This document shows, piece after piece, positions 17,731 to 36,497 of a stretch of DNA of 64,000 nucleotides. Position numbers and translations under genes: made by a program. The DNA is from Calditrichia bacterium. GTDB taxonomy: Bacteria; Calditrichota; Calditrichia; JAJRVZ01. Where the stretch lies: the NCBI GenBank assembly GCA_963777955.1, contig CAVZSQ010000019.1:128001-192000 (forward strand), in the 5' to 3' direction. The notes beneath the pieces are model-generated. The model saw nothing but the letters and a program-made list of their open reading frames with translations, ran no database searches and was not told where the DNA came from. Every line of letters begins with the position of its first letter. Position 1 is the stretch's first letter.

Positions 17731-18576
17731 CTAATTCAAATCTATATACCCATTAATATGCTTACTCTTATCGATAATGTGATTATCCGCGTCAACGACA
17801 GCACCATGACAGTTATTGCAACTTGCTTCGACATCGATGTGCCCCATCGGCGGCAGTAAATGGCAACTACCGCAGACCGCCTGACCTGATCCGGCTTGTG
17901 TCCAGTCCATTTCCTGATTATTGCCCAGCATAGCATCGGTTTCATAGAAATCCGGATTGGCACTGGCTGATTTTCTAAAGATAAAATTCCCATGACAATA
18001 GGTATTACTGCAGGATGCCGTAGCATGATCCCAGCGCGGGGATATCTTGCCCTGCCAGCTGGCCATTCCGCCAAATTGTACGTTAATCCCTTCCTGTTTA
18101 TCAATATGATCAGGATCATCAAAACCGGTGAGTGTGGATGACACAGATCACAAGTTCCGGGTGTAGGCTGTGCTCCAGGTATCGCCGCTGAGGTGAATCT
18201 GATGTGCACCCACACCGATTGCCGTTGTAACCGTATCCCCCATCAAATCCTGCGGAGGAGCCCAGGAAGTGAGGGCCAAAACCGAGGCATTACTATTACC
18301 GTGACAGAGGTTGCATGCTTCCATGCCAGCCGTTTCGCTGTGACAGGCATAACAGGAAGCACCGCTGGAACCACCCCGGTAATCGCTGCCATGGCAGGTG
18401 ATACAGGATTCATAGCCGGCGGCCTTGACTTTATTGCCATGGAATTCCGCTGAACTGAGCGTATTCCAGTCCGCCGGATGAGTGACACTGGGGGGGGGTG
18501 TTATTTCTTCGGTACAGGACCAGATCAGTACCACTAAGAAAAGACTGGCAAAAATAATTAATGCTTTCACAGTCAA
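17731..18576 (-). CDS. Multiheme c-type cytochrome lipoprotein with CxxxxCH/CxxCH domain (about 7 hemes); interrupted by compensating indels near 18150
   Basis: LIWSC lipobox-like signal; CITCH, CYACH, CNLCH, CDLCH (shifted frame), CSNTYCH, CGSCH, CNNCH. Confidence 0.8.
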
Positions 18577-18669: not shown

Positions 18670-20583
18670 TCAGTTTGTTTTTGTATAAGCCGTATATTCT
18701 TCCGGATGATGATGCCGGAGATCTTCCTCGCTGATTTTACCGTCCAGCCAGGTCAGGTTCATGGGATATTTTTCCGGATGATAAATTACAAAGAACCAGT
18801 GCCAGATAAATATAGCCAGGGTGGCCAGCCAGGCTTCGAAATAATGGATAACTTCGGATGTTTCAAACATCCAGGTCGGCAGATAGTTCATAAAAAATTC
18901 AGGAAACCATAATACCAGACCGGTGAAGGCCATCACCGCAGTACCCCAGATCAAAGCCAGATATTCTGCTTTTTCGGTATAATCCCAGCGGCCGAAGCGG
19001 GGACGGTGCTCAGAGAAACCCAGATAATATTTCATATTCTGCCAGAATCCGGTAACATCGGAAATTTGCGGACGTAAGGCCGATATTTCCTTTCTGCCCT
19101 GGCGATGAAATAAGAAATAAACCAGTTGAATCAGCGATATACTTATCAGTATAACCGCGCCGATCCGGTGCAGTACTGAGCGCAGAGACTCGGTCATTCC
19201 GGCAGAAACCAGTAAACGTACCCAACCGGCATCAGGAAATTTTAGGGCAAAACCTGTTATCACCAGAATAAAAAAACTGAAGATCAGTAAAAAATGCTGG
19301 TACACTTCAAAAGAGCGAAAACGCTGGTATAAACGGTCCTGTTTGCGGGCCTGCCGTTTTTTACGTATATAACTTACCAGGATAATCAGGTTATGCAGAA
19401 CCATGCTGCCGACAATGACAATAATCAGCCACATATAGACGGTTCGTGCATAAAAAGTTACCGGATTACGTTCGGCCAGATTCTTGGGATGTACAGCAAT
19501 ACTGCTGAATTCCTGGCTGATGTTATCATGACACTTGCTGCAGGTTTTTTTCAGATTAGCCGGATTCACACTCGACTCAACCGAGGATTGCTCGCGGATC
19601 GCATGGGTCTCATGGCAACTGGTGCAGTTGGCGGCATCGACAGATCCTTTTAATATAGCCAGACCGTGATAGGTCCGGTTATAGGAAGCGAAGCGCTCGG
19701 CATCTAATCCGAAGCGCGCCATCATTGCCGGCGAAGAATGACATTTGGCGCAGATCTGCGAGGATAAATTCAGACGGTTGGTAATCGCGTCAATTTCCTG
19801 AGGCGACTGAATTTTATGTTCCCCGTGGCAATCATTGCAGGTGGGCGATTCAAAATGACCGCGTTGTACGGCCCGCCAGTGGATACTCTGCAAATATTCC
19901 GCCTTCACCTGCTGATGACAATGACCGCAGGTTTCGCTGCGGTTTAATTTGTTAAAACTGGAGCGCGGATCGGACATTATATAAATGGCGTGAGAACCAT
20001 GACAGTTGGTACAAGTGGGTGCGCCGCGGGCTGGATCTTCGCGCAGGATCCTGGCATGCACACTCTGCTGATAACCGGCCACCGGTCCATCCCCCTGGTA
20101 ACCCAGATATTCAATTACCCGCGGATCCAGATGGCATTTACCGCAGGTAACAGCCATGTTCAGGGGATAGATTGTGGATGCAGAATCAGCAGCCGGCAGC
20201 ATATAATGACTGCCGTGGCAATCCTTGCACTGGGCCGGAGATATATTTTTTCCCCCTGCCGAAGTAGCATGGATACTCCCGGCATATACTTGTTGTACAT
20301 CCTCATGACAACTGCTGCAGTTGACCGGGGGTAATTCCGATTCATGTTCGGGACTCTTGACAGTACTGTGGCAATCCACACAATTGAATCCGCCATGAAT
20401 CGATTTTTCGTATTTGCCCTGATCTACATATAAGGAGATTTCGGTACTATCATCGATACTTTTAGACAGACCCGAGTCGGCATGACATTGTAAACAATCT
20501 TCAACTGATTGGCCGTAGACAAATGCCGTTGAGAATAATCCGCAAATAAATATGAACCGCTTGATTTTTAACCTCCTAATCAT
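18670..20583 (-). CDS. CbcL-like quinol oxidoreductase: 11-heme periplasmic domain fused to a cytochrome b membrane domain
   Basis: 11 CxxCH motifs, then TM helices with His ligands (YQH, LHR, IHY, WHW) and a YTEKAEY-type motif. Confidence 0.82.
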   Translation of the reverse strand: MIRRLKIKRFIFICGLFSTAFVYGQSVEDCLQCHADSGLSKSIDDSTEISLYVDQGKYEKSIHGGFNCVDCHSTVKSPEHESELPPVNCSSCHEDVQQVYAGSIHATSAGGKNISPAQCKDCHGSHYMLPAADSASTIYPLNMAVTCGKCHLDPRVIEYLGYQGDGPVAGYQQSVHARILREDPARGAPTCTNCHGSHAIYIMSDPRSSFNKLNRSETCGHCHQQVKAEYLQSIHWRAVQRGHFESPTCNDCHGEHKIQSPQEIDAITNRLNLSSQICAKCHSSPAMMARFGLDAERFASYNRTYHGLAILKGSVDAANCTSCHETHAIREQSSVESSVNPANLKKTCSKCHDNISQEFSSIAVHPKNLAERNPVTFYARTVYMWLIIVIVGSMVLHNLIILVSYIRKKRQARKQDRLYQRFRSFEVYQHFLLIFSFFILVITGFALKFPDAGWVRLLVSAGMTESLRSVLHRIGAVILISISLIQLVYFLFHRQGRKEISALRPQISDVTGFWQNMKYYLGFSEHRPRFGRWDYTEKAEYLALIWGTAVMAFTGLVLWFPEFFMNYLPTWMFETSEVIHYFEAWLATLAIFIWHWFFVIYHPEKYPMNLTWLDGKISEEDLRHHHPEEYTAYTKTN

Positions 20584-21478
20584 CAACACTGTGCTGGTGG
20601 CATTCAATACAGACATTGCGGGCATAGGCATCGTTATGACAACTCAGACAATAATCCAGATCCCCTTCAGCCTGACGTTTGTGCAATCCGCCATTCCGGG
20701 GATTGGTCCAATTGGCATAGGCATGATTGCGCGGCATGACCATTTCACGCTGATGACACTCAATACAGAATGCGCCTTCCTGATGACAGGTAAGGCAATT
20801 ATCCTTATTGGTCCGGACATCGATTCCATGATTATTTTTATAATTCAGCGGATGAGTCAAGCGGTCCAGATTATCCCCTTCATGACAATCGGTACAGTAG
20901 GAATTCTGATGACAGTGTACACAAGCTTCTTTATTCAGCTGTGCGGTCGGTCCATGATCCTTATTCCAGCCGGTACGGTGATCCGCAGGTTTAAACGGAT
21001 GGTCCTGTTCATGGCAGACCAGGCACTTTGCCTTATCTTCATTATAATCCATACTGCCATGACATTCGCGGCATTTATTTTCGGCAGGAATTTGTCCGAC
21101 GCCGGCCGGGGATTCCCGCAATTCAATCCCGGCATGACAGACCTTACAATCCTGATCCGATTTAACATGTAGCTGGTGAGCAAATTTCGCCCGCAACTGG
21201 ACTATCCGCGGTACCTCTTGTGCCGCGTCCGGATCAGTATGACACACCTTGCATTCGGTATCTTTTTCATCGTGGCAATTGTAGCAGGTCTGCATCGCAG
21301 GCAGCAGATTGTCCTGGGGTGATTGACTGGCGGATACCGGCTGATGACAATCGGCACATTTGGCGCCGGCTTGCTGCAGGTGGAATTTATGCGAAAAGAT
21401 CAGATCTGCTTGCTGGGAAAAACCCGATAAGATCCAGCAGGCCAAACAAACTATAACGAGAATTAGCAGTCTTTTCAT
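20576..21478 (-). CDS. Periplasmic dodecaheme cytochrome c
   Basis: Sec signal; 12 CxxCH motifs; two c7-like FxHxxH tri-heme modules at the N-terminus. Confidence 0.88.
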   Translation of the reverse strand: MKRLLILVIVCLACWILSGFSQQADLIFSHKFHLQQAGAKCADCHQPVSASQSPQDNLLPAMQTCYNCHDEKDTECKVCHTDPDAAQEVPRIVQLRAKFAHQLHVKSDQDCKVCHAGIELRESPAGVGQIPAENKCRECHGSMDYNEDKAKCLVCHEQDHPFKPADHRTGWNKDHGPTAQLNKEACVHCHQNSYCTDCHEGDNLDRLTHPLNYKNNHGIDVRTNKDNCLTCHQEGAFCIECHQREMVMPRNHAYANWTNPRNGGLHKRQAEGDLDYCLSCHNDAYARNVCIECHQHSVDD

Positions 21479-21497
21479 AGTGGTACACCTTCTCATT

Positions 21498-22688
21498 TTA
21501 CCAGATAAAATGAATATGATTTAAAAGACGATTATCGGAGTCCGCAAAGCGGTTATTCAACCACTGGTACTCCAGATCTGCCTTCCAGTGTTTGGTGAAG
21601 TTGTAATGCAACCGGACCGTGTTGGCTAACTGGTTTTCATATTCATAGATTTCTTCAAAACGGTAGCGGGTATAGTTCACACCAACCGAAGCAATCAGGT
21701 TCTTCCAGATTTCATAGCCATAATCGAACATCACCCCGACCTGATCGCCAAGGTCTCCGGTCTCATAAAGCAGATTGATCGCGCCGCGATTGTCATTAAC
21801 TCCCAGCATCAAACGCTGTCCCGAGGCCTCTTCCAGAGAGATATACTGGACTCCGGCCGATAAACCATAGTCGGCGGTCAAAGCATAATTCGTATTCAGA
21901 CCGGCCTGGGTATATGGTTCGATCTCAAAGATTTTGAAATAAGAATCGGCATAAATTTGTGGAGTCTGTTGTTTGGCAAAAACACTGACAGCCAGCTTAT
22001 TGGAGGGGGCGTACCTGGCCGAGGCATACAGACGATGCAGGGTCGAGTTCAAAATATCATAATGTGTCTGCAGGATGAATTGGATCTTTTTAAGTGAATA
22101 ATTATTCAGATTCAAACCCACAATCTGCCATTGGTTCTCATTTTCCCTTAACCTCTGCAGGTAAGCCAGCTGCACATTAGTGTTGTAAAAATGACGATAG
22201 GTCAACGCTGAACCATAAACCGTGGCAGCATCGAATTCGTATACTTTCATTTCACGGAACAGATTGGATTCCACGCCGCCGAAGATCTGCCAGCTGAGAT
22301 CGGCCACTGGTTTCAGGGTCAGGTTTACACCATCCAGGCTACCAAAGGGAATTCCGGCATGCAGGAACTGTCGGCCGATTTCGAAATCCAGCAAATTATC
22401 AAAAAGATTACTGGCTGAGACCGACATCCGGTAAGCCCGCCAGGGCAGCTGACCCGGTTGCGGCTGGCTCAGCCAGCGCATGGAAACATTCAGGTTCAGA
22501 TTGTTCCAATTTTCGGCCAGGGCAGAGAAACGCAGGAATTGATAAACATTGAGAGCCGACTTTGATCCTTCCTGTTCATAGACGTACAGGGAGGAAGTAT
22601 AGCGGCCGCTCGTTTCAATGGTTTGCGCTGTAATACTATGAATACAGAGCAACGTGGCGATGAGTGAAATCAGATAATTTTTCTTCAT
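21498..22688 (-). CDS. Outer-membrane beta-barrel (porin of a porin-cytochrome conduit)
   Basis: Signal peptide; alternating aromatic/polar strands; GRQ..GxxDG motif; C-terminal aromatic residue (HIHFIW); first gene of the cytochrome operon. Confidence 0.75.
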   Translation of the reverse strand: MKKNYLISLIATLLCIHSITAQTIETSGRYTSSLYVYEQEGSKSALNVYQFLRFSALAENWNNLNLNVSMRWLSQPQPGQLPWRAYRMSVSASNLFDNLLDFEIGRQFLHAGIPFGSLDGVNLTLKPVADLSWQIFGGVESNLFREMKVYEFDAATVYGSALTYRHFYNTNVQLAYLQRLRENENQWQIVGLNLNNYSLKKIQFILQTHYDILNSTLHRLYASARYAPSNKLAVSVFAKQQTPQIYADSYFKIFEIEPYTQAGLNTNYALTADYGLSAGVQYISLEEASGQRLMLGVNDNRGAINLLYETGDLGDQVGVMFDYGYEIWKNLIASVGVNYTRYRFEEIYEYENQLANTVRLHYNFTKHWKADLEYQWLNNRFADSDNRLLNHIHFIW

Positions 22689-22745
22689 AGGCAAAACCTA
22701 TTGTTAATTAAAGTTATTGAGGCATTTAAAACTCTCTATAAAACG

Positions 22746-22761
22746 TCAAATATCATGCCAA
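22746..22761 (-). promoter_or_regulatory. Sigma54 (-24/-12) promoter of the porin-cytochrome operon
   Basis: TTGGCATGATATTTGA on the minus strand, about 60 bp upstream of the start. Confidence 0.7.
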
Positions 22762-22913
22762 ATTATAGTTTTTAATCGGTTTATTATAATCACGACTTTT
22801 AGCCGGAATTCGGTAATAAACCGGGCCAATTGAACTAAATTTATTAAAACTTAACAAATTATCGAATATTTATTTGTTTTAACTGGAATCACTTTTACAT
22901 GTTAGAAAAAATA

Positions 22914-22952
22914 TGAGACATGAAAGCGACACTGTGAGAATTTCAGGTCTCA
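22914..22952. promoter_or_regulatory. Putative enhancer (bEBP) sites
   Basis: TGAGACATGAAAGCGACA and TGAGAATTTCAGGTCTCA; the first matches 25441-25458 at 15/18. Confidence 0.6.
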
Positions 22953-23031
22953 AAATAAAACAGCCGAGATAGATAGGGAAATAAAATCGTTCGTATTGAT
23001 GTGATATTAAATCAGAATTTGAGTATTAAAT

Positions 23032-23079
23032 AAAAAAAAGACCTTCCGGAATAATTCTCCCCCAGCTCCGGAAGGTCTT
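23032..23079 (-). terminator. Rho-independent terminator of the 9-heme lipoprotein gene
   Basis: AAGACCTTCCGGA...TCCGGAAGGTCTT followed by a T-run on the minus strand. Confidence 0.8.
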
Positions 23080-23111
23080 CGATCAGAGTATAATATATTT
23101 ATACTCTTTTC

Positions 23112-24824
23112 TTACCAGTTACTGGCTACAGCTTTCCGATCCGAAGTCAGAATGGCAGCACCGGGAACTTTATTATCCATCAAATGCAAATAACTCTGCT
23201 GTAATAATTGTACAGCATAATCGGGATTATGAACACCATGACTGCCGTCCTCCTCGACGAATATTAAATTCCATCCTGCTTCCCGCTGGATGTAGGTGGA
23301 ATTGTTCGTATCGCCCAGAGCCTCAGCCAAGGATATACCGCCGGTAGTGTCCAGGCCGGTAGTGATCAAGGCATCTTCCAGCATAGTCATCAAGCCGGCA
23401 ACTTCGTCCTGAACCCCTTCTACCTGGTTATCGCCATCAAAATCTTCCAGGGCCATAATATCTTTAAACGATGATATAGTACCATGGCAATTGGAGCATG
23501 CTAACACAGTGGGTTCAAAGGTATGACCGGTCTTGGCCGGTTCCGTTTCGCTCACATATTCAACCCGGTTTAAATGGCAGGTTTTGCAACTATTCTGGAC
23601 ATACAGATGGGAAGGTTGTGCCCAGACAAAATCTTCCGCGGCAACAGCCTGGTAGCCGGTTTTGGCAGCCATCATATCCCCCTGCACGCTGCCATGAGGT
23701 CCAAAGTTAGACCGGCCAATGGCAATTTGCGATTCGCCTCCGCGACGGGCATGGTGACATTGCATACAAAGTTTGCCGACACCACCGTCAGTGATCAATG
23801 GAGATTCGCCATTAGCAGTCACCAGCTGAACATCAGCAATGGTCCGTAGCTGCGCCGGATTAGTTGCGTCGTGGGAATCATGACAGGTAGTGCAGCCCAT
23901 CGATTGAAAAGGCGCCACGGTAGTATCCGGTCTGGCGCTTACCGCCCCGCTGCCATAGAATGTACTCAGATCTCCGGATAAACGAACACCCGCGGCAACC
24001 CCTTCATGACAACCCTGGCAAGATACCGCATCGGCTTCGGCCATAGAACTATGAGCAGATTCCTCCCATTCCGAATAATAAGGATGGTGGGTGCCTTCAT
24101 GACATTTCGCACAATTCTCAGCCGACCAGTCAACAGTGTTACCGCCGCCGGTAAGGTGACCTGAAGCGGCACCGTGGCAGTTTTCGCACTGGACGTTTTC
24201 GAACTTGGCAATCGGTGCTTCGTCATAGCCGCTGTTACCCAAAGGTCCCTCATACCCCACGGCATGGCAGGGATTGCAGTAGGAAGCCGGATGACCGCTG
24301 CCCTGCAGAGTTGCCCAGGCACCGGCATGACCGGTTTCAGACCAATCGTTATATTCACTGGAATGGCAACCCGAACAGGCTGAGGAACCCACGTAATAAG
24401 GCGTCTGGTATGGTGCATACATCCCGACACCCATAGTACGCAGACCCAGACCTATAAGTTGTCCCCCGACCACATGTACACTCACTTCATAAGCCCCGGC
24501 GTCATCCGGTGCTTTCCAGACAACTGTATCCCCAGTGGCACTGTTAAAAGTACCGCCGGTGGCGAACCAGTTATAAACCAGCGTTCCAACCTGATATCCG
24601 GTTGGAATCGTGATGTCTGCGGTAAATGTTACTTTACCCCCCTGGGCTACAGAATCATTGCCGCTGACATTAATGATCTCGACTGCGATCGTATCGTGGA
24701 CGACTTTCTCGACTTCCACGATCTTCTCTTTTTCCGATTCGCAGGATGCCAGCAACATCAATCCCAGCAAGGCTACCGGAACGATCAGCGCCAGTAATTT
24801 GTGCATAATAGAGTTTTTATGCAT
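23112..24824 (-). CDS. Nonaheme cytochrome c lipoprotein with an N-terminal Ig/PKD-like domain
   Basis: LLASC lipobox; Y.W..TGG...V.WKAP...G.Y Ig-like segment; 9 CxxCH motifs; C-terminal helices ending DGSHGVHNP. Confidence 0.85.
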   Translation of the reverse strand: MHKNSIMHKLLALIVPVALLGLMLLASCESEKEKIVEVEKVVHDTIAVEIINVSGNDSVAQGGKVTFTADITIPTGYQVGTLVYNWFATGGTFNSATGDTVVWKAPDDAGAYEVSVHVVGGQLIGLGLRTMGVGMYAPYQTPYYVGSSACSGCHSSEYNDWSETGHAGAWATLQGSGHPASYCNPCHAVGYEGPLGNSGYDEAPIAKFENVQCENCHGAASGHLTGGGNTVDWSAENCAKCHEGTHHPYYSEWEESAHSSMAEADAVSCQGCHEGVAAGVRLSGDLSTFYGSGAVSARPDTTVAPFQSMGCTTCHDSHDATNPAQLRTIADVQLVTANGESPLITDGGVGKLCMQCHHARRGGESQIAIGRSNFGPHGSVQGDMMAAKTGYQAVAAEDFVWAQPSHLYVQNSCKTCHLNRVEYVSETEPAKTGHTFEPTVLACSNCHGTISSFKDIMALEDFDGDNQVEGVQDEVAGLMTMLEDALITTGLDTTGGISLAEALGDTNNSTYIQREAGWNLIFVEEDGSHGVHNPDYAVQLLQQSYLHLMDNKVPGAAILTSDRKAVASNW

Positions 24825-24866
24825 TCATTCACCCCCATTGTTAAAAGATTAGTCATTTGTTCCTGT

Positions 24867-25251
24867 TTAATAAATTCTTTTTGCAATCAATTCAATTACT
24901 GAGTTTAGCGAATCGGTCAGCTCCGATTCTGCTATAGGTTTAATAGCATAATATTGAATTCCCAGCTGACTGATCTCTTTACCCAGACTCTATGCCGGTA
25001 TCCGACGTGGCGAAAAAAATATCCACATGCTGGTTAATCTTACGGACCGAACGCAGAATATGTGCTGAATAAGGGCTCAGAAAATCGTCATCAACAATGA
25101 TCAGAGAAGGATTCTGGGCACAGATGGTCGACATGACATCCAGTGGATCTGCAGATCCATCGTAAATCATCAGAGCATTTTTTTGCCTGGGAATTGCGTT
25201 CCCGACCATCTGATTAAGATTTTGATCCCTGGATATTAACATTATTTTCAT
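24867..25251 (-). CDS. Single-domain response-regulator receiver (atypical); one frameshift
   Basis: Receiver pattern LIIVDDD, FATSD and YAIKP (shifted frame); stop at 24867. Confidence 0.65.
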
Positions 25252-25264
25252 TGCAGGCATCCTG

Positions 25265-25281
25265 TGCAATTGATATGCCAA
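25265..25281 (-). promoter_or_regulatory. Sigma54 promoter for the receiver/9-heme lipoprotein unit
   Basis: TTGGCATATCAATTGCA, near-consensus. Confidence 0.82.
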
Positions 25282-25421
25282 ATACTCTGAAAAATACCCT
25301 TATAAATTAAAAATTATGTGTAATATTATATAAATATGTATAATATTTACTAATATTGTATATGATATAATAGGGACAATGGAGCACACTGGCCATTAAT
25401 GTCCCTGATCAGTTCTTAAAG

Positions 25422-25458
25422 TGAGCGTACCTTGTCGCAGTGGGACATGAATGTGACA
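25422..25458. promoter_or_regulatory. Putative enhancer (bEBP) sites
   Basis: TGAGCGTACCTTGTCGCA and TGGGACATGAATGTGACA. Confidence 0.6.
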
Positions 25459-25503
25459 AATCCCTTATTTAATCTTACCAGCTTTTTGCTTATATTTGTC
25501 ATT

Positions 25504-26979
25504 ATGTTCAGGACCATCAACAGTAAATTTATTTTCTTCACTATCATCTTTATCATGCTAAGTGTTGGTCTGCCCACTACTTTTTTGATCCGCCAGTTCA
25601 GGGCTAATTTTGAACAACGTACCAGCGCCTTGCTGGAAACCACCATGGAAGTGGTTCATGGCGACGTAGTCAACGTAATGTTGAAATATGATCACAAAAG
25701 GGTTCAGGACATTATCGATAAAATAATGCGCTATAAAATCATCCGGCATCTGCGTTTTTTCGATACGGTGGGCAATATACGATTTGCTACCGATACCACC
25801 GAGATCGGTAGAAACATCGATGATGTAGATAAGGGACACGTCCAGATCGGCGAAATAGATCACAAGGTTATCCTGTTACTGGAAAATAAAAAAGTATACA
25901 CCTCCACCCGTGCTATTGTAAATCTGCCGGAGTGTCAATCCTGTCACGGGATTAATCCGGTCATAGGTTATCTGGATATCGATGTTAATCTGACCCGGGC
26001 CGAGAGATATTTTTATACCGGCTCATTTCATATCATCTTTCTGGCTATCGCTATAGTGCTGTTGTTATTTTTCGGATTTTATTACCTGTTCAACCGCTTC
26101 ATCAGAAAACCGCTGGACCGTTTAACCCTGGCGCTTAACCAGGTGGATGAGGGACAGCTGGATACCCGCCTGCCGGCAAAAAAAGCAGATGAAATCGGCA
26201 TTCTGGAACGACAGTTCAACACCATGGTTTCCAACCTGCAGGCTTCCCAGCAGAAGATCGAAGAACTGCACTTCGAACAACTGCAGCGGGCGGATAAACT
26301 GGTAACCCTGGGTGAATTGGCCGCCGAAATGGCTCATGAGATCAACAACCCTGCCGGTATTGTCATGTCCCGCGCTGATTATCTGCACATCAAGGCTGAT
26401 GAGAATTTGGCCTTAAAAAAATACCAGGATGACCTGCAGGTGATCATCAATCAGGTCAATAAAATATCGCGGATTACCGGTAATATTTTAAAGTACAGCA
26501 AAAAATTACCCAAGCAATTTCATACTGTGGATTTAAAGCAGGTTCTTGAAGAAAGTCTCAATGTACTGGAACCGCGCCTGGCTATGAAAAAAATTGATCT
26601 GCACAAAGAATTCAAAGATAATGATTGTCAGATTTCAGGCGATGCCCAGCAACTGGAACAGGTTTTTACCAATTTGATCAACAATGCCGTTGACGCGATG
26701 TCCCAGGGCGGATTTTTAACCTTAAGCCTGGAGCGCAATGAACAGCATCAAATTCAAATTAAAATCAGCGACAGCGGTAGCGGTATCAGTGCGGATCTGC
26801 TGGACCAGATCTTTACTCCATTCTATACCACCAAGCCCCCCGATAAAGGTACGGGTCTGGGACTGTATATTGTCAAAAATATCTGCAAAAACCATAATGC
26901 CGATATTCATTGTACCAGTTCACCCGGCCTGGGGACTACTTTTACGGTAACTTTCAGAGGGAATGATTTGAAAAAATGA
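25504..26979 (+). CDS. HAMP sensor histidine kinase with a periplasmic heme-c motif
   Basis: Two TMs flanking CQSCH; HAMP; AHEINNP H-box; N, G1, F and G2 boxes. Confidence 0.9.
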   Translation: MFRTINSKFIFFTIIFIMLSVGLPTTFLIRQFRANFEQRTSALLETTMEVVHGDVVNVMLKYDHKRVQDIIDKIMRYKIIRHLRFFDTVGNIRFATDTTEIGRNIDDVDKGHVQIGEIDHKVILLLENKKVYTSTRAIVNLPECQSCHGINPVIGYLDIDVNLTRAERYFYTGSFHIIFLAIAIVLLLFFGFYYLFNRFIRKPLDRLTLALNQVDEGQLDTRLPAKKADEIGILERQFNTMVSNLQASQQKIEELHFEQLQRADKLVTLGELAAEMAHEINNPAGIVMSRADYLHIKADENLALKKYQDDLQVIINQVNKISRITGNILKYSKKLPKQFHTVDLKQVLEESLNVLEPRLAMKKIDLHKEFKDNDCQISGDAQQLEQVFTNLINNAVDAMSQGGFLTLSLERNEQHQIQIKISDSGSGISADLLDQIFTPFYTTKPPDKGTGLGLYIVKNICKNHNADIHCTSSPGLGTTFTVTFRGNDLKK

Positions 26980-28346
26980 AAAAGATCTTGATCGTTGACG
27001 ACGAAGAAGATATGCTGCAAAGTTTACGCAAAATTTTATTGCAGCGGCAGTCCTACCAGGTAACGACCATAAAGGACAGCAGGCAGGCTTTACAACTGGC
27101 CGGTCATGAAAAATTTGATCTGATTATAACCGATTTCAAAATGGGCGATATTTCCGGAATCGATATATTAAAAGCGGCCTCCGGTAAATTTCCCGATGCC
27201 AAGGTGATCATGATCTCCGGGTACGGCACAATCGAAGCCAGCGTGCAGGCGATGCAGGAAGGCGCCTTCGATTTTATCGAAAAACCATTTACCTCTAAAA
27301 AATTATTCGCCTGCATTGACCGCGTATTCGGACCGCAGCTTGAAGCAAAAACCTTCGGCAGTGATGCCGGGGGGAAGGTGGTCGAACTGCCGGGTATTAT
27401 CTTTAAAAGCAAACAGATGTCCGAGATAATAACTCTGGTCGGCAAAATTTCTTCCGGAGATTTAAATATACTGCTTACCGGTGAAAGCGGCACCGGCAAG
27501 GAATTAATAGCACGGGCAATCCATAATCTGAGCAAGCGCAGTATCCATCCCTTCGTGCCGGTGAACTGCGGTGCCCTGCCGGAGAATCTGTTTGAAAGTG
27601 AATTATTCGGCCACGAGAAAGGGGCTTTTACCGGTGCCATCAAGACCAAACCGGGATTGCTGGAATTTGCCAACCAGGGTACTTTTTTCTTTGACGAGAT
27701 CGGCGATCTCAGTTTGACCCTGCAGGTAAAACTATTACGCATGCTGGAACAACGCCAGATCCGGCGGGTCGGCGGCCAGAAAGAAATTGATATTGATGTA
27801 AGGATTATTGCCGCCACCAATAAGCAACTGGCCGAAGCCGTCAAAGAAAACAAATTTCGTGAAGATCTGTATTATCGTCTGAATACCATGCAGATCGAGA
27901 TTCCACCCTTGCGCGAACGGACTGATGATATTCTGCCGCTGGCCAATAATTTTCTCGCCGAGTTATGCCGCAAGAATGAAAAAATCGTTACCCGCTACTC
28001 CTCCGAAGCGGAAGAATCCCTCAAATTATATAACTGGCCGGGAAATGTCCGGGAGTTGCAGAATATGATAAGCCGGGCTTATTTTCTCACCTCCTCCCGG
28101 GTAATTCAAAAAGCAGATTTACCGCTGCCGGTCAGCGAGAAAACTTTTTATATCGATCAGCAGATGTTTGATCTATCCTATAAGCAGGCCAAAGATGCGG
28201 TCCTGGAAAAATTTGAAATCGAATATCTGACCGGCCAGTTGCGTAAATATAAAGGTAATATTTCCATAACTGCTGCCAAATGCGGAATTGACCGGCGTTC
28301 GATTCATCGCTTAATTAAAAAATACAACATTATGTATAAAGACTAG
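26976..28346 (+). CDS. Sigma54-dependent (NtrC-family) response regulator
   Basis: Receiver domain, GESGTGKE, GAFTGA, WPGNVREL, Fis-type HTH. Confidence 0.95.
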   Translation: MKKILIVDDEEDMLQSLRKILLQRQSYQVTTIKDSRQALQLAGHEKFDLIITDFKMGDISGIDILKAASGKFPDAKVIMISGYGTIEASVQAMQEGAFDFIEKPFTSKKLFACIDRVFGPQLEAKTFGSDAGGKVVELPGIIFKSKQMSEIITLVGKISSGDLNILLTGESGTGKELIARAIHNLSKRSIHPFVPVNCGALPENLFESELFGHEKGAFTGAIKTKPGLLEFANQGTFFFDEIGDLSLTLQVKLLRMLEQRQIRRVGGQKEIDIDVRIIAATNKQLAEAVKENKFREDLYYRLNTMQIEIPPLRERTDDILPLANNFLAELCRKNEKIVTRYSSEAEESLKLYNWPGNVRELQNMISRAYFLTSSRVIQKADLPLPVSEKTFYIDQQMFDLSYKQAKDAVLEKFEIEYLTGQLRKYKGNISITAAKCGIDRRSIHRLIKKYNIMYKD

Positions 28347-28356
28347 GGGGTGGATT

Positions 28357-29865
28357 ATGAAACTTAAGATTCCTGCTTCCATGCGAAATTGGATTTCATT
28401 AATCGGCACTATGATTGCGCTGATCTGCTTTTTTATGATCGTTTTCCTCTTCTTTATCACCATGATCCTGGGTCAGGGCGGCTCTTATATCGGCCTGGTA
28501 ATTTATGTGCTGTTACCGGCGGTGATGATTATGGGATTATTGTTAGTCCCCATAGGTATGTATTTCCAGCTGCACCGTCGAAAAAAATCGGGACAAATTC
28601 AGGAGCTGACCTGGCCGCGGCTAGATTTAAATGACTTGAAACAACGCCGCTTCTTCTTCAACTTTGCCATTGTAACTACTATTTTTCTGTTTATCTCGGC
28701 TGTAGGCAGTTATGAAGCTTTTCATTTTACCGAGTCGGTCCCCTTCTGCGGTACCATTTGTCATGAAGTCATGAAACCCGAATATACGGCGTACCAGCAT
28801 TCGGCCCATGCCCGCGTGGCTTGCGTCGACTGCCATGTAGGTGAAGGAGCAAACTGGTACATGCGGTCGAAATTATCCGGATTGTACCAGATTTACGCCG
28901 TGACCACCAACATCTTCCCCCGGCCCATTCCGACTCCGGTTAAAAACCTGCGCCCGGCCCGCGAAACCTGCGAACGCTGCCACTGGCCGCAGAAGTTTTA
29001 TGCCCAGAAATTCAGGGCCGAACGGCATTACCTGAATGACGAGCAGAATACCGAATGGGATTATCAGCTGATTATGAAAATCGGTGCAGAATATTCAGCC
29101 CTCGGACTGGTCGAAGGTATTCACTGGCATATCAATCCCGATGTGAAGATCGAATACCTGGCCAATAATGAAAAAAATCTGGAGATACCGTGGGTACGCT
29201 ATACCGATCAAAAAAATAACCGGGTGATCACTTATCTTAACGAAGAAAATCCCATCGATCCCGACACGGTCAAAAACCAAAACATACGCACCATGGATTG
29301 CATGGATTGTCATAACCGGCCATCGCACAGTTACAAACCGCCTGCATTTTTCGTCAATGAGGCGCTGACTTCCGGTTTAATTCCCAAAGAATTACCCCAG
29401 ATCAAATCACTGAGTATGCAGATCTGTGCCATTGAGTTCAATCAGACCGATTCCGCCCGGCAGTACATTCAAAAATCTGTCAGCGAGTTCTACCAGAGTA
29501 ATTATCCGCAAATTTATCAGGAGAAAATGCAGCTGGTTGAGAAAGCCTGGACTGGCTTACAGGAAGCGTATCTGCAAAACATCTTTCCGGAAATGAAAGT
29601 GCGCTGGAATGCTTATCCCAACCATATCGGACATGTAGAATTTCAGGGATGTTTCCGCTGCCATGATGATAAACATAAAAGCTCTGACGGGTATACAATC
29701 GCCAAGGACTGCAATCAGTGTCATCATATCATTGCCCAGGGTAGTCCCGGCCAGATGTCTATTTCAACTCTGGATAAACCCCTGGAGTTTAAGCATCCGG
29801 TTGATGTGGGCGATGCCTGGCGGGAAGGATACTGTACCGATTGTCATACAGGCTTAAATCCCTGA
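28357..29865 (+). CDS. ImcH-like NapC/NirT-family membrane cytochrome c (7 hemes)
   Basis: 3 N-terminal TMs; CGTICH plus 6 CxxCH; LRPARETCERCHWP, GIHWH and CMDCHNRPSH motifs. Confidence 0.85.
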   Translation: MKLKIPASMRNWISLIGTMIALICFFMIVFLFFITMILGQGGSYIGLVIYVLLPAVMIMGLLLVPIGMYFQLHRRKKSGQIQELTWPRLDLNDLKQRRFFFNFAIVTTIFLFISAVGSYEAFHFTESVPFCGTICHEVMKPEYTAYQHSAHARVACVDCHVGEGANWYMRSKLSGLYQIYAVTTNIFPRPIPTPVKNLRPARETCERCHWPQKFYAQKFRAERHYLNDEQNTEWDYQLIMKIGAEYSALGLVEGIHWHINPDVKIEYLANNEKNLEIPWVRYTDQKNNRVITYLNEENPIDPDTVKNQNIRTMDCMDCHNRPSHSYKPPAFFVNEALTSGLIPKELPQIKSLSMQICAIEFNQTDSARQYIQKSVSEFYQSNYPQIYQEKMQLVEKAWTGLQEAYLQNIFPEMKVRWNAYPNHIGHVEFQGCFRCHDDKHKSSDGYTIAKDCNQCHHIIAQGSPGQMSISTLDKPLEFKHPVDVGDAWREGYCTDCHTGLNP

Positions 29866-29975: not shown

Positions 29976-30500
29976 TCATCGCAAATTAATTTGGTCTGAA
30001 CAGACGGTACAAAAACTATCCCCTTTCACATCCAGATCGTCGACCGTATTGGAACTGGCCATGACGCATTTATAATTATGACAATGGCGCAGATTCTGTA
30101 AATGGCCATATTCATGAATGGTTTCTTTGACTAAGCGCCCGATCAGTTTATGTTCATCGGCCGGCAATCCGTAAAATTCATTGATCAACCGGCAACTGGA
30201 TACGATTGCCGCGCTGCCCCCCAGACCGGCCAGACCGAAGACAAAGGTCAAAACGGGGATATATAAATCCAGGCTGGTATAGATTATGACTTTATTTTGC
30301 TGTGTGGAAGGTCTGCTGACCTTTTTAATAATTTTTATCGCATCGTATTGTTCCCGGTTCTGATCGTAACAATCCTGAACCGTTAGTTCCGTATCGTAGC
30401 GGGCAGCTATTAAACCGCTGCGCTCACACAGCAGGGAGATCAGATTATCGAGCAGATTATTATGATTGAATTGGACGGTAATAATTTCGAGTTCAGGCAT
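29976..30500 (-). CDS. Archaemetzincin-family (M54) Zn metalloprotease
   Basis: FVFGLA, HEYGHLQNLRHC, CVM Met-turn, FCxxC. Confidence 0.85.
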   Translation of the reverse strand: MPELEIITVQFNHNNLLDNLISLLCERSGLIAARYDTELTVQDCYDQNREQYDAIKIIKKVSRPSTQQNKVIIYTSLDLYIPVLTFVFGLAGLGGSAAIVSSCRLINEFYGLPADEHKLIGRLVKETIHEYGHLQNLRHCHNYKCVMASSNTVDDLDVKGDSFCTVCSDQINLR

Positions 30501-31851
30501 TTTCCGGGCGTTTTATTCCGTACTTCTGCAATTTTTTATAGATGGTAACCCGATCTATGTCCAGTACTCGGGCAGCATTAGAAATATTCCAGTTATTTTT
30601 TTCCAGTACACTGATAATATGCGCTTTTTCAACATCGTCCAGTGACAGGGTGGTTTTAAACGAAGTCTGCAATTCAACATGGTTAAGCAGGAAATCTGCG
30701 CCGTTCAGAACATCGTCCTGTGTTACCACCATAGCCCTTTCGATGGCGTTTTCCAGTTCCCGCACATTCCCTTTCCAGGGATATTTCATCAGCATTTGCA
30801 AAGCAGCAGGGGCAATGCCTTCCACCGCTTTGTTCATTTTGGCGCGGTAATGGGCGATAAAATGCTCAACTAATTCAGGAATGTCTTCCGGCCGCTCACG
30901 TAAAGGTTTAATGTTGATCGTATACACCTGTAAGCGGTAATACAGATCTTCGCGGAATTTTCCATCCTTCACGAATTCTTCCAGATTGGTATTGGTAGCC
31001 GAAATCACCCTGAAATCCGATTGAATGATTTCATTGCCGCCCAGACGGGTGAATTCCCTGGTTTCGATTGCCCGCAGCAAATCCACCTGCGTTTTGGGTC
31101 CGATAGTACCGATCTCATCCAGGAATAAAGTTCCGCCGTTGGCAATTTCTAGTTTCCCTTTGCGCCGGTACATAGCCCCGGTAAAGGCTCCTTTTTCATG
31201 TCCGAATAATTCACTCTCCAGCAGGGTTTCGGTCATCGCCCCGCAATTAACCGTAACGATGGGAAAGAAACGTCGATCGCTCTGGGCATGAATGGCCTGG
31301 GCTACCAGTTCTTTGCCGGTGCCGCTTTCGCCGCGGATCATCACCGTTGTCGAAGTCTTAGCCACGGTTTCGATCAGTTTCTTGACCTCGGCAATATAAC
31401 GGCTTTTGCCGATTATCTCCGGCGGCCGGGTCAACTCTTCCAGACTTCCTTTCAAACCGATGTTCTCAATGGTCAGGCGCCGCTGTTTTTCCGCATTACG
31501 GACCAGATGACTTAAACTATCGGGATCGAACGGCTTGGTGATATAATCAAAAGCCCCTTCTTTTAAAGCCTGTACGGCAGTATCTACCGCTGCGTAGGCC
31601 GTGATCATGATTACCACGGCATCTTTGTCAATTTCTCTGATGCGCCGGTGCAATTCCATGCCATCCATTCCCGGCATTTTAATATCGATAAAATAAATAT
31701 CCCAGCGGGTCGTACTCATTTTGTTCAGGGCTTCTACCGCATCCCGCGCTGTATCGACCTGATAACCATCTTCCGTAAACCAGCCGGACAATGACTCGCG
31801 GACGATTTCTTCATCATCCACTATCAGTATTTTTACATCATTCTTAGCCAT
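30493..31851 (-). CDS. Sigma54-dependent response regulator
   Basis: Receiver domain, GESGTGKE, GAFTGA, HTH. Confidence 0.95.
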   Translation of the reverse strand: MAKNDVKILIVDDEEIVRESLSGWFTEDGYQVDTARDAVEALNKMSTTRWDIYFIDIKMPGMDGMELHRRIREIDKDAVVIMITAYAAVDTAVQALKEGAFDYITKPFDPDSLSHLVRNAEKQRRLTIENIGLKGSLEELTRPPEIIGKSRYIAEVKKLIETVAKTSTTVMIRGESGTGKELVAQAIHAQSDRRFFPIVTVNCGAMTETLLESELFGHEKGAFTGAMYRRKGKLEIANGGTLFLDEIGTIGPKTQVDLLRAIETREFTRLGGNEIIQSDFRVISATNTNLEEFVKDGKFREDLYYRLQVYTINIKPLRERPEDIPELVEHFIAHYRAKMNKAVEGIAPAALQMLMKYPWKGNVRELENAIERAMVVTQDDVLNGADFLLNHVELQTSFKTTLSLDDVEKAHIISVLEKNNWNISNAARVLDIDRVTIYKKLQKYGIKRPENA

Positions 31852-31853
31852 AC

Positions 31854-33452
31854 TCAGGACGCCTTTAATTGTTTAACCGGAATTTTGATGATAAAGGTAG
31901 AACCTTGATTAACTGCTGATTCGACCCAGATTTCTCCGCGGTGCCGTTGCACGATGGCATATACCGCCGAAAGTCCCAGACCCACCCCCTTAACTGCATT
32001 TTTAGTGGTGAAGAAAGGTTCAAATATCTGTGTTTTCAGATCTTCCGGTATTCCTTTACCTGTATCTTTAACATACAGGTATACCGCTTGCTCAGACAAT
32101 TTCAACTCCGTTTTGACCGTGAGCACCCCTTCATTCTCCATTGCTTCCACCGCATTGACGTACAAAGCCAATAAAGCCTGTTTGATCTGACTGTCATCAA
32201 TCTCTATGGCCGGCAGGTCGGTTTGGAATTCACGAATCAGTTTGATATTATGTAATTTCAGATGATGGGCAATCAAGTCGATGGAATTATCAATAACATG
32301 GTTAAGGTCATGGGCTTTGATCTCGATCGCTTCCTGACGGGAGAACAGCAACATATTTTTTACGATCGTACCGCTGCGCTCGCTTTCTGTTTCGATCATC
32401 CGCAGATACTTGAGCATGGCTTCTTTTTCAGGGATAGGTGTATTTTCTTTGATTAATTTTTTCTGGATTAATTTGCTGTAAGTAAGTATGCCGGCGATGG
32501 GATTATTCAGCTCATGGGCTACGGTCGCCGATAATTGTCCCAGTGAAGCCATTTTTTCAATCTGCAGATTACGTTTCTGCGTTCGTTCCAGTTCCTGTGT
32601 CTTTTCCTGAACCCGGTTTTCCAATTGATTGGACCAGCTGGTGATCTCCCGTTTTGCTTCGCGCAGATCCGCAGTCATTCGATTAAAGGAACGGGCCAGA
32701 CTGCCCATTTCATCGCCGGACGTGGATTTAATCTGATAACCGAGATTGCCGTTGGAAACTTCCCTGGTACCAAGGATCAGTCTTTTTACCGGTACATGTA
32801 CAAAAAACCAGATCATTATCCCCACGGTCAGGGCCAGGGCCAGCGTGATGGCAATATTGGTCGAGATCATGCGCGAGCGGTTTTGTTCAACAATAGTATC
32901 CATCTTTTCCAGGGAAAGACTTATGCGCAATAATCCCAGATAACTATCCGCCTGTTGATGCGCATGACAGTCCGCTGTATAACAACTTGGTTCGTTGGCA
33001 ATCGGTCTGACATAAACCATCAGGCGTTTTCCCCGGGCATCAAAAAAAATATGATGCCAGGCTTCGACAGGTTTTTTTCTCAGTTCGCCCGAGGATTCAT
33101 GACAGGGTGAACATTCCCGTTCGGCAAAGTCGGCTGTGCGATTTATTTCTTCTTCGGCAGTCGAGAAGGCAATCCTGCCGGTTTTATCAAAAAGGGTAAC
33201 TTTCTGGATTCCTTCCTTTTGGACGATCCCTTTCATAATGGAATTAGTCGATTCCGTGGCATTCAGCAGCATAGAATTTCTCATAGACCCGGCGACCACT
33301 TCGCTGGTCCGGTAAGCGCATTGGCGGGCGATCTCGGCATATTGCTCGGATTCTGTTTTGATATAATAGAGTGAAAAACCAACGGTCAGGATGATCAGAA
33401 CCACAAAGACAAGCACAAAGAGTTTAAAACTGAGCAGGCGATAAAAATACAT
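31854..33452 (-). CDS. HAMP sensor histidine kinase with two periplasmic heme-c motifs
   Basis: CSPCH and CYTADCH between the TMs; AHELNNP H-box. Confidence 0.9.
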   Translation of the reverse strand: MYFYRLLSFKLFVLVFVVLIILTVGFSLYYIKTESEQYAEIARQCAYRTSEVVAGSMRNSMLLNATESTNSIMKGIVQKEGIQKVTLFDKTGRIAFSTAEEEINRTADFAERECSPCHESSGELRKKPVEAWHHIFFDARGKRLMVYVRPIANEPSCYTADCHAHQQADSYLGLLRISLSLEKMDTIVEQNRSRMISTNIAITLALALTVGIMIWFFVHVPVKRLILGTREVSNGNLGYQIKSTSGDEMGSLARSFNRMTADLREAKREITSWSNQLENRVQEKTQELERTQKRNLQIEKMASLGQLSATVAHELNNPIAGILTYSKLIQKKLIKENTPIPEKEAMLKYLRMIETESERSGTIVKNMLLFSRQEAIEIKAHDLNHVIDNSIDLIAHHLKLHNIKLIREFQTDLPAIEIDDSQIKQALLALYVNAVEAMENEGVLTVKTELKLSEQAVYLYVKDTGKGIPEDLKTQIFEPFFTTKNAVKGVGLGLSAVYAIVQRHRGEIWVESAVNQGSTFIIKIPVKQLKAS

Positions 33453-33534
33453 CTTCGACCTTATTAAATATTTGAATCAAATTAACAAAATATTTAAAAA
33501 AGACAAATTTGATTTTTACATTTATAGCTAAACG

Positions 33535-33563
33535 AAAAAGGCACGAGGATTTCGTGCCTTCTT
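33535..33563 (-). terminator. Rho-independent terminator
   Basis: AAGGCACGAAATCCTCGTGCCTTTTT on the minus strand. Confidence 0.75.
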
Positions 33564-33591
33564 GTATTCATATTTTTCACGCCCTGGTTGA

Positions 33592-34308
33592 TTACTCATT
33601 ATGAGCCAGCTCTTTGCTCAACAAGAATTCCTCTGCCATTCCATGCCAGTTCTGGGGTGCGATTTCCCGTAAAAAACAGTCCTTGATTTGCCCTCCATCG
33701 GCCAGTACCGGTATCGTATCAGCGCTGATCAGTTGGTTCAATTTGTCCACAGTGTGTTGCAGCCAGGTATAGGCGATTTTCCCGGTGAGCAGATTTTTCA
33801 GATGAGTGCTCAAGCTGGGCACCCGCATCAACATGAACCAGCCATTTTCATAAGGATCTGTTTGCCGAAACTCACCGGGTTTATTCACTTTTTCATTTAC
33901 CTGCATTACTTCTCCGCTGACCGGCGCCAGGAATGAAAGCGATTTACCGTCAATCTCCGCGCTCCAGGCTTTTGAACCCTGCTGCAGATATTGTCCTTTT
34001 TCAGGTAAATTCCAGCGCGCTTCGGCACCTACTAACTTGCGGGCAAAATCATCGATTCCAATTTTAACGATATCGCCTTTTTCCGGTTTGACCCAGGTAT
34101 GACCCTGGTGGTAAAAATAACTGCCATCAAGATAAAACCAATCGATCAGTCTGATTCTTTTTTTACTTCCGGCCACAGCCAGTGCTGCTCCGGTAACCGG
34201 TGTATTCATCCAGCGCAGGAAGAAGTACATCAGGATTAAGAAAAAGATAACCAGGACATATTCGAATCCTTTGGTCGAAAAGATATCTATATATTTGAAA
34301 CCTTCCAT
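33592..34308 (-). CDS. Membrane-anchored glycine-cleavage-H-like protein
   Basis: N-terminal TM; YHQGHTWV, IGIDDFA, APVSGEV..VN and DPYENGW motifs; C-terminal ADGG. Confidence 0.8.
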   Translation of the reverse strand: MEGFKYIDIFSTKGFEYVLVIFFLILMYFFLRWMNTPVTGAALAVAGSKKRIRLIDWFYLDGSYFYHQGHTWVKPEKGDIVKIGIDDFARKLVGAEARWNLPEKGQYLQQGSKAWSAEIDGKSLSFLAPVSGEVMQVNEKVNKPGEFRQTDPYENGWFMLMRVPSLSTHLKNLLTGKIAYTWLQHTVDKLNQLISADTIPVLADGGQIKDCFLREIAPQNWHGMAEEFLLSKELAHNE

Positions 34309-35594: not shown

Positions 35595-36446
35595 TCCTCC
35601 CCCTCAGATTTTTCCTTCCTGTCTTTGGTAGCAGCATGCAAAGCCAGCAGGAAAGCCGGTAACAGAATATCTACCACAGGCACACTATATAGAAACGTTT
35701 TGGTATGTTCCGGATACGGCTTTTCACCCAGATCGGTGCGGAATCCGATCTTTTCAAAAGGAACGGCCGAGAGGTATAACACGGAACTTCCCCCCACCTC
35801 CTGTTCGCCATATATATAATGAAGATAGGAATCGGGTTGCGTATAAATTCGCTTGTACGCTTCCTCTAATAAATCCCTGCGGCGCCCAAAAACGATTGCT
35901 TGTTCCGGGCATTCAGTGGCACAAGCCGGCTGATTACCGGTTTGCAGCCGGTCCCAGCATAAAATGCACTTCTGTATTTTGGGTATCGCTTTATCATATT
36001 CGAATTTTGGAATTTCATAAGGGCAGGATATCATACAAAACCGGCAGCCCAGACATTTACTTTCACGCCAGATTACAGCTCCGTCAGTCCGATTTATATA
36101 AGGCCTTGGAAACACAGGCAGCCACACAGGCTGGTTGATTGCAGTGCATGCATTGTTTCTTGACAAATATTTCCTGTCCCTCAACTTCAAACCGGTTAAC
36201 CAGGGTCCACTGTGTCGCCGAAGTATTACGCGGACCCTGAAACATGGCATCCAGGTCGGGTTCCGGCAGATCATGGGCTTCGGCACAGGCAACGGAACAG
36301 GTCTGGCAGCCCACACAGCGGGTCGTATCGATTAACAACCCTGAAAACTCTTTTTCAGATTCACTCTCCTGTGCACGAATCTGATCCAGCGGGAGAGCCG
36401 ACAGGCCGATCACCCCCAGAGTTTTGACAAAGTTTCTCCTATCCAT
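35591..36446 (-). CDS. Tat-exported 4Fe-4S dicluster protein (HybA/HmcB-like) with C-terminal TM; one frameshift near 36090
   Basis: MDRRNF; CVGCQTCSVAC, CMHCNQPACVAAC, CLGCRFCMISCP, KCILC...PACATECP. Confidence 0.88.
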
Positions 36447-36497
36447 AAATTGTATGCTCCTTATTTCAGCTGTCGCTGTAAGTTTCAGTGGTTCAGT

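Follow-up and report, generated by a model that had tools for sequence, protein, structure and literature searches.

Whether two quinone-linked electron-transfer proteins encoded in one gene island serve as alternative branches selected by redox potential, or as parts of a single route to the outside of the cell, is the question raised by a 64,000-nt stretch of DNA (the window, whose positions are used below) from a Calditrichia bacterium (GCA_963777955.1, contig CAVZSQ010000019.1, 128,001-192,000; host genome of 4.24 Mb, 91.8% complete with 5% contamination). A sequence-only reading had proposed that an ImcH-like and a CbcL-like quinol dehydrogenase, about 8 kb apart around a haem-sensing two-component system, form a compact potential-switched system for extracellular electron transfer (EET). 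Both genes are present as divergent open reading frames (ORFs) at 18670-20631 (- strand, 653 aa) and 28357-29865 (+ strand, 502 aa), with starts 7,726 bp apart, and ImcH, a bc-cytochrome, a likely conduit and a sensor with a haem motif are packed in 12 kb. The reading favoured here, with moderate confidence, is that the island encodes one co-regulated route by which menaquinol electrons reach cell-surface acceptors, in which the place of CbcL is taken by a five-helix relative.

An ImcH ortholog and a five-helix paralog of CbcL

The imcH product (28357..29865, +) has three hydrophobic segments at its N-terminus; its haem motifs are six CxxCH and one CX3CH, and it contains the PF03264 domain. 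Geobacter references were taken from G124, namely P0136 (named ImcH by UniRef) and P0121, which do not differ from the public GSU3259 and GSU0274 products in sequence and, in length and haem spacing, conform to the PMC6295460 supplement. Over 494 aa the window protein shares 42% identity with G. sulfurreducens ImcH, of which it is the reciprocal best hit; it is of similar length (502 aa versus 507 aa for GSU3259) with haem motifs at nearly matching positions, and has its closest named relatives in Calditrichota by homology search. A tree of the NapC-like part, which is a 27-row quick tree with a long-branch warning, places it with ImcH and apart from four NrfH rows (99 in the Shimodaira-Hasegawa-like approximate likelihood ratio test). 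Taking haem-1 ligand and quinol-site residues from 10.1101/2023.05.03.539133, four of five are identical in the window protein, the exception being Y188, aligned with F187 and retained as tyrosine in 17/23 alignment rows; E127, H137, K173 and Q179 are kept in 23/23. By homology and phylogeny the window gene is a genuine imcH ortholog, and the ImcH-like character given to it by the sequence-only reading is borne out. In Geobacter, imcH and cbcL lie ~3.3 Mb apart, whereas the window imcH resides in the island behind a kinase-regulator pair.

The second protein (18670..20631, -), whose gene likely starts at 20583 and overlaps the stop of the upstream gene, joins 11 CxxCH motifs to a cytochrome b561 domain (PF01292, residues 438-620, E 1e-12). 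It is 29% identical to GSU0274 and its reciprocal best hit in the genome, four candidate b-haem histidines (H446, H488, H596 and H611) align with CbcL, and all fused bc proteins form one clade against FdnI, HydC and CbcB (99/99). This places it in the CbcL/MtrH/MtoC superfamily, in which a multihaem c-type part is fused to a dihaem b-type part. To this extent its description as CbcL-like was correct, but the protein is not an ortholog. Geobacter CbcL has nine haems and six helices, the window protein 11 and five; the motif HSDEALLA...HF of the former reads HYFEAWLA...WH in the latter, which stops 30 residues past the motif tail with no hydrophobic segment there, so that helix 6 is absent. At aligned CbcL positions V205 is replaced by E312, F525 by A606, H350 by E442 and H535 by I616.

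The same division runs through the wider family. Among 62 proteins from the loci compared, every one of the HSDEALLA...H type has a sixth hydrophobic segment and none of the HxxEAxLA...WH type does; among the 120 homologs listed for the window protein, 119 are of the latter type, with the sixth segment in 0/119. A careful bc tree was built from 27 of 51 rows, and Geobacter-type CbcL clusters with 19-haem six-helix proteins of Calditrichota and Bacteroidota (100/100). A clade uniting the window's 11-haem group with Geobacter CbcL was rejected by the approximately unbiased test (p 4e-11), for which the 11-haem group was defined after the quick tree had been inspected. The six-helix proteins of the FCB (Fibrobacteres-Chlorobi-Bacteroidetes) group keep F525 and have a gap at V205. 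On alignment and phylogeny, the window bc gene is not cbcL proper but encodes a five-helix paralog, or sister, of CbcL. FdnI is the nearest outgroup of the b-domain, on a long branch that makes its placement unsure.

In nine relatives (G045, G040, G041, G044, G006, G038, G015, G004 and G036) a 19-haem gene lies directly 3' of the 11-haem gene, and it is frameshifted in G041 and G044. Such tandem pairs are seen at L123:5050-10210, L126:13522-18276, L180:10774-15721 and L139:6551-11320, each type also occurring alone elsewhere, and the tandem five-helix and six-helix proteins could act together. A six-helix CbcL elsewhere in the host genome was not found with two queries of this 91.8% complete assembly, and G043, with the gene order of the window, likewise has no 19-haem gene. 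Caldithrix abyssi has bc-cytochromes of both the five-helix and the six-helix type as well as ImcH. Its WP_006928297.1 matches the 11-haem protein of G006 without a difference, and the adjoining accession WP_006928296.1 is the one given as the C. abyssi CbcL homolog in PMC6295460. MtrH and MtoC are tabulated there with six helices, their comparison with the window protein being by description only. In the Desulfuromonadia genome G161 (L084:1420-4499) the only match is an 11-haem five-helix bc-cytochrome adjoining an 8-haem gene, with no six-helix CbcL.

A role as partner of NrfH-type, formate dehydrogenase or hydrogenase enzymes was considered and rejected, with scores of 57/134 bits for TIGR03153, 53/116 for TIGR01583 and 37/122 for TIGR02125 and with the trees also against it: both proteins group with the ImcH and CbcL/MtrH/MtoC superfamilies, not with NrfH, FdnI, HydC or CbcB. 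No nrfA, fdnG or hydrogenase gene is among the 43 window ORFs scanned, and a plasmid search with the b-domain gave no match.

Probable conduit genes, a haem-motif kinase and sigma54-like sites

Between and beside these two genes lie two leftward units. One consists of genes for a predicted outer-membrane porin (21498..22694, -), a 12-haem periplasmic cytochrome (20576..21496, -), the bc-cytochrome and a lipoprotein cytochrome with five CxxCH and one CX4CH (17731..18576, -; TIGR01904 and motifs); the other, of a stand-alone receiver-like protein (24867..25260, -) followed by a 9-haem lipoprotein cytochrome (23112..24824, -). At 22% over 317 aa (E 6e-15), the porin matches a G. sulfurreducens protein whose gene adjoins that of a 231-aa conduit cytochrome present in duplicate, and the C-terminal half of the 12-haem protein matches that 231-aa cytochrome itself (27%, E 2e-13). 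We take these Geobacter proteins to be OmbB/OmbC and OmaB/OmaC, respectively. PF13609 (Porin_4) was found in 5/22 aligned porin homologs, not in the window protein, and the porin profile has no sequence relative in PDB. The CxxxxCH lipoprotein is likely the outer-membrane cytochrome of the conduit. Genes for a porin-like protein, a periplasmic multihaem cytochrome and an outer-membrane cytochrome adjoin one another here and show relatedness to the porin-cytochrome conduit (pcc) set of Geobacter.

The 9-haem lipoprotein is OcwA/OmhA-like, its best PDB match being 6I5B (E 4.5e-15; profile E 4e-29), a structure linked to OcwA by PMC6703420. It also matches MccA, NrfA, c554 and octahaem nitrite reductases, has no close Geobacter match (best E 6e-4), and returned automatic names only in an atlas search. 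Its paralogs at the equivalent position in G041 and G044 terminate in a sorting domain of the type IX secretion system (T9SS). OcwA-like 9-haem cytochromes with a T9SS type A sorting tail are also seen at L128:16989-19001, L130:18011-19987 and L205:1195-3300, and multihaem cytochromes with such tails are likely exported by type IX secretion. The genes between the bc gene and imcH thus resemble a porin-cytochrome conduit, and the EET role put forward by the sequence-only reading is likely.

The rightward unit comprises a histidine kinase gene (25432..26979, +; likely start 25504; periplasmic CxxCH, HAMP, HisKA and HATPase), a gene for an NtrC-type sigma54 response regulator (26976..28346, +; receiver, sigma54-activator and helix-turn-helix domains) and imcH. 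The kinase CxxCH, at residues 168-172, is present in 21/21 aligned kinases, including both window kinases, those of relatives and three Desulfuromonadia homologs; a PDB search with the sensor domain matched HAMP only. The 'heme-sensing' of the sequence-only reading is better put as bearing a c-type haem motif, any sensing role being putative. The imcH ATG follows the regulator stop at 28346 after a 10-bp gap, as had been noted, and throughout the window's genus just 10-12 bp precede imcH. The gap is on this comparison a feature of the genus and not a designed basal branch.

The genome contains rpoN. A sigma54-like site TTGGCATATCAATTGCA (25265..25281, -) lies before the receiver and 9-haem genes, and a -24/-12 site TTGGCATGATATTTGAC (22745..22761, -) before the porin operon. 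The latter has two mismatches to TGGCAC-N5-TTGC and so was missed at one mismatch, and the one-mismatch scan of the window (two sites observed, 4.2 expected by chance) is uninformative alone; the strict motif occurs 97 times in the genome. Similar sites stand upstream of the porin in 4/7 relatives' regions and upstream of the receiver gene in 7/7, and the case for the porin-side site is made by this conservation in relatives and not by the scan. The CbcL-type gene was said to lie behind a sigma54 promoter; it does belong to a sigma54-type operon, but the site is two genes upstream, before the porin. In the spacers of families f4 and f7 a looser sigma54-like site is directed into a kinase/regulator-bc-imcH operon in 6/6. 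A strong sigma54-like site occurs in 6/35 imcH upstream regions, five of them in f1/f4 relatives (G045, G044, G040, G035 and G036) at 71-130 bp. In the host genome none was found upstream of imcH or of the kinase, and imcH may well be less tightly controlled here because of it.

A palindrome, TGTCGCAGTGGGACA (25433..25447), at a distance of 152 bp from the sigma54 site and a little before the point where the kinase gene likely starts, is a candidate binding site of the sigma54 activator. It is the genome's best match to its pattern, which was built from the window site and L010, and related palindromes occupy the same spacer in G040, G041, G044, G035, G036 and L010. Since this candidate activator site lies just upstream of the kinase gene, kinase, regulator and imcH may be autoregulated. 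Scans for sigma70 promoters (31 versus 24.8 expected) and terminators (16 versus 12.3) were uninformative.

How far this arrangement extends was surveyed in 86 Calditrichota genomes, with matches taken at E 1e-30. imcH is found in 68/86 and a bc-cytochrome gene in 68/86; the two co-occur in 61, lie within 25 kb on one contig in 20 and stand side by side on the same strand in 14, with 22-532 bp between the matched parts. These co-location counts are lower bounds, given fragmented assemblies and four unlisted bc matches left out, and the kin among the genomes are not independent. The neighbour of imcH is of the five-helix type in 9/14 adjacent pairs, and in families f1, f4 and f7 imcH and a bc-cytochrome remain accompanied by the kinase-regulator, porin, 12-haem, CxxxxCH and 9-haem genes. 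Co-location of the two genes, which the sequence-only reading had suggested surveying, is common, whereas a wiring with basal ImcH and inducible CbcL is not conserved.

Probable electron route, rival readings and implications

Gene content, motifs, family placement and clustering, as well as the conservation of the sigma54-like sites and of the palindrome, are direct observations, and on them a route can be drawn. ImcH would take electrons from menaquinol with proton release on the periplasmic side, and the site of the bc protein would be cytoplasmic (sides of action after 10.1101/2023.05.03.539133 and 10.1101/2022.08.31.506072). Proton yield would differ between the two quinol modules. Electrons would leave through the porin/12-haem/lipoprotein conduit, with the 9-haem protein (23112..24824) as candidate surface terminal reductase. 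Fe(III) reducers, Melioribacter for one, carry imcH and pcc-like genes (PMC6137239). Several points weigh against such a route. Pfam, NCBIfam and PDB gave no match to the window porin itself, the single-sequence model of its fold is unusable (predicted local distance difference score of 35), no partner with a periplasmic-shuttle role was identified, and Y188 of ImcH is F in the window protein. The sigma54-like sites are degenerate, 29/35 imcH upstream regions have no strong one, and the palindrome was not found at <=4 mismatches before the window porin or the relatives' imcH. Clustering is not required, because in G006 and G082, both single contigs, imcH lies >1 Mb from any bc-cytochrome. Caldithrix is not known as an Fe(III) reducer and is described as untested (PMC6137239), the available part of the C. 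abyssi genome paper mentions no iron reduction, and pcc clusters also occur in bacteria that do not reduce metals (PMC4245776).

Of the other readings, the potential switch, with a basal ImcH for high-potential and a sigma54-induced CbcL/conduit branch for low-potential acceptors, is highly unlikely. It fits a host imcH that starts 10 bp past the regulator, with no upstream sigma54-like site found, while the bc gene belongs to a sigma54-type operon; the haem motif of the kinase could read potential, and in Geobacter the sigma54 regulator BccR does induce cbcBA at low potential (10.1101/2021.04.15.440034). In Geobacter, however, imcH and cbcL are constitutive, with the switch residing in the CbcL protein, which is active only below about -0.1 V. 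The window bc gene falls outside the cbcL orthologs, and both gating residues are missing, with E312 and A606 where CbcL has V205 and F525, changes of F525 to Y and of V205 to A/G being reported to abolish the Geobacter shut-off. Nor is such a wiring conserved in other genomes: imcH and the bc gene are adjacent on one strand in 14/61, and imcH has its own sigma54-like site in five relatives. In the window itself the conduit sits in the supposedly inducible operon, so that a basal ImcH would lack this exit, and the candidate activator site before the kinase points to possible autoregulation of the unit that contains imcH.

Quite unlikely, too, is a redox loop in series, in which the five-helix protein, fed by the conduit or a periplasmic donor, would reduce menaquinone at the cytoplasmic face like FdnI, and ImcH would re-oxidise the quinol periplasmically and pass the electrons to a higher-potential acceptor. 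The frequency of the five-helix type beside imcH suggests joint use, MtoC relatives are proposed quinone reductases (PMC6295460), and the sides fit, ImcH protons going to the periplasm and the CbcL-type site being thought cytoplasmic (10.1101/2023.05.03.539133, 10.1101/2022.08.31.506072). FdnI as nearest outgroup also accords with it, subject to that long branch. Yet the island has no low-potential donor enzyme, the sole tested member, Geobacter CbcL, exports electrons, and direction is unreadable from sequence, Zhong and Shi giving no feature that separates oxidases from reductases (PMC6295460). Another reading turns on the 9-haem protein, whose OcwA/NrfA fold and matches to MccA, NrfA, c554 and octahaem nitrite reductases would suit an enzyme for soluble or periplasmic acceptors (nitrite, hydroxylamine, sulfur or selenium oxyanions) or an electron sink of a fermenter. 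OcwA slowly reduces nitrite and hydroxylamine, a related c-haem Cache sensor family, of which the window kinase is a putative member only, binds nitric oxide (10.64898/2026.02.01.703092), and pcc clusters occur in S0 and selenate reducers (PMC4245776). For nitrite, though, the genome already has two separate nrfHA pairs; periplasmic substrates do not need a porin with 12-haem and lipoprotein cytochromes; and the T9SS tails of the 9-haem paralogs indicate the cell surface. This reading is unlikely, and the single route from menaquinol to the cell surface is retained as the probable one.

For annotation, the main consequence is that the label CbcL homolog spans two subfamilies with different membrane domains; therefore best-hit annotation over-calls the low-potential switch of Geobacter. 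The natural pair of a five-helix protein without F525 and a six-helix protein with it is a ready comparison for the shut-off of CbcL at high potential. Calditrichota, moreover, join the groups with a near-complete phylum-wide EET gene set (imcH 68/86, bc 68/86, porin homolog 55/86). A far bolder proposal, to which little probability is given, is that the five-helix bc-cytochromes are an unnamed CbcL sister subfamily running in the FdnI direction, in a proton-pumping loop with ImcH, often from one operon, between two extracellular or periplasmic redox pools, under a haem-sensor sigma54 regulon in most Calditrichota; if the loop were real, Calditrichota with their Ignavibacteria and Bacteroidota neighbours would be overlooked bidirectional electroactive bacteria.

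Neighbouring loci and known systems

Next to imcH lies a flanking module (29976..37275, -) with two GcvH-like genes, HybA/HmcB-like and NrfD/HmcC-like genes, a kinase, a sigma54 regulator and an archaemetzincin gene, read here from its gene content as a third quinone-linked module. Its GcvH-like proteins are membrane-anchored or signal-bearing, its kinase, the second of the window, carries CxxCH and CX4CH, sigma54-like sites lie at 37332 and 36557, and the HybA/HmcB-like Fe-S gene is frameshifted near 36087. Genes of this module also adjoin imcH in L001, L011, L026, L034, G040 and G044, of which L011, L026 and L034 are Ignavibacteria-type loci with the flanking block beside imcH.

Related contigs from four of 17 matching runs, among which no single piece spans the whole island, show one-base differences at 18134, 24987 and 36087-36088. 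A look-up of RNA runs carrying this DNA listed none, which counts neither for nor against expression. A one-base indel near 18134 breaks the CxxxxCH cytochrome gene into two ORFs; a contig of run X1 has an extra base at that place, and in G043 the gene is intact as a single 281-aa ORF. The receiver gene has a frameshift near 24987, where a contig of run X2 has one base fewer. Because the related contigs differ and the G043 gene is whole, the breaks at 18134, 24987 and 36087 are likely assembly errors. One-base shifts, likely also assembly errors, split genes at 14459-15830 (phosphomannomutase-like), 35591-36446 (Fe-S protein) and 47209-50487 (ExbD/TonB, PstS-like).

Farther along the window, 42173-52157 (+) holds a PAS kinase, a sigma54 regulator and a sigma54-like site (45529), followed by STAS, ExbB, ExbD, TonB, phosphate-binding and tetratricopeptide-repeat genes, and 53320-60913 (-) a gene pair for bacterial alpha-2-macroglobulin and PBP1C. 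A second multihaem cluster of the host genome (G000:C18; L176:6305-16031) encodes a membrane protein, a 20-haem protein, an asparagine-synthase-like protein, a 25-haem protein, a 554-aa porin-like protein and an Fe-S flavoprotein. Near-identical nrfHA pairs are found at G000:C3:19109-21199 and G000:C5:8327-10435, one of them on a 16-kb contig, and this duplication may reflect the 5% contamination. In G035 (L133:9171-14553) three successive ORFs with 16, 31 and 20 CxxCH lie ~3 kb past the conduit genes. Another host locus, G000:C27 (L175:6681-10661), has an Otr-like octahaem gene (cut short in the assembly), a PhsC-like cytochrome b and two YeeE/YedE genes, and may correspond to the genes named as a cbcBA homolog in Caldithrix. 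A full Geobacter triad with CbcBA was considered and rejected: the C27 cytochrome b does fall near CbcB, with 30% identity, but its neighbours are the Otr-like octahaem and YeeE proteins, with no separate CbcA match, and a CbcA query of the host genome matched only the c-domain of the window bc gene.

The island's parts are of known kinds, and most of them, both quinol-dehydrogenase families and the porin included, are already in print for Caldithrix. ImcH and CbcL homologs have been tabulated for Calditrichaeota and Ignavibacteriae with a remark on their co-occurrence (PMC6295460; Zhong and Shi 2018), a pcc porin has been reported with cytochromes in Caldithrix abyssi and also in Ignavibacteriales (PMC6137239), pcc clusters in Ignavibacterium (PMC4245776), and a seven-gene cluster in an anode-enriched Bacteroidetes (PMC8258643). 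The split into five-helix and six-helix proteins and this regulon were not found in the open full-text literature, where the split was not searched by name, subscription journals and bioRxiv supplements being outside the scope.

Set against known systems, the island shares with pcc conduits of the OmbB-OmaB-OmcB type (PMC4245776) the order of a porin-like gene and then genes for a periplasmic multihaem cytochrome and for a lipoprotein cytochrome whose motifs are atypical, and differs from them in having a quinone-linked bc-cytochrome within the operon and an OcwA-like 9-haem lipoprotein. OcwA of Thermincola potens (6I5B; PMC6703420) has, like that lipoprotein, nine haems, a c554-like front and NrfA-like C-terminal helices, whereas the window protein is a Gram-negative lipoprotein with an extra N-terminal domain, the similarity being patchy and the active-site residues outside the comparison. 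The BccR-cbcBA system of G. sulfurreducens (10.1101/2021.04.15.440034) resembles the island in its sigma54 regulator divergent from a bc operon headed by a small regulator gene, but CbcB belongs to a different b-domain clade from the window bc protein. In 'Desulfuromonas soudanensis', imcH (DSOUD_0207) and cbcL (DSOUD_0214) are seven locus numbers apart (PMC4914508), and as in the window imcH and a cbcL-type gene lie within a few kb. A further case of imcH near a cbcL gene, with 4-haem and Fe-S genes between, is found in G214, which has no conduit homolog in the 20 kb examined. The gene of 'Desulfuromonas soudanensis' encodes a true six-helix CbcL, 71% to that of Geobacter (PMC4914508), whereas the window carries the five-helix paralog in an operon with its putative conduit.

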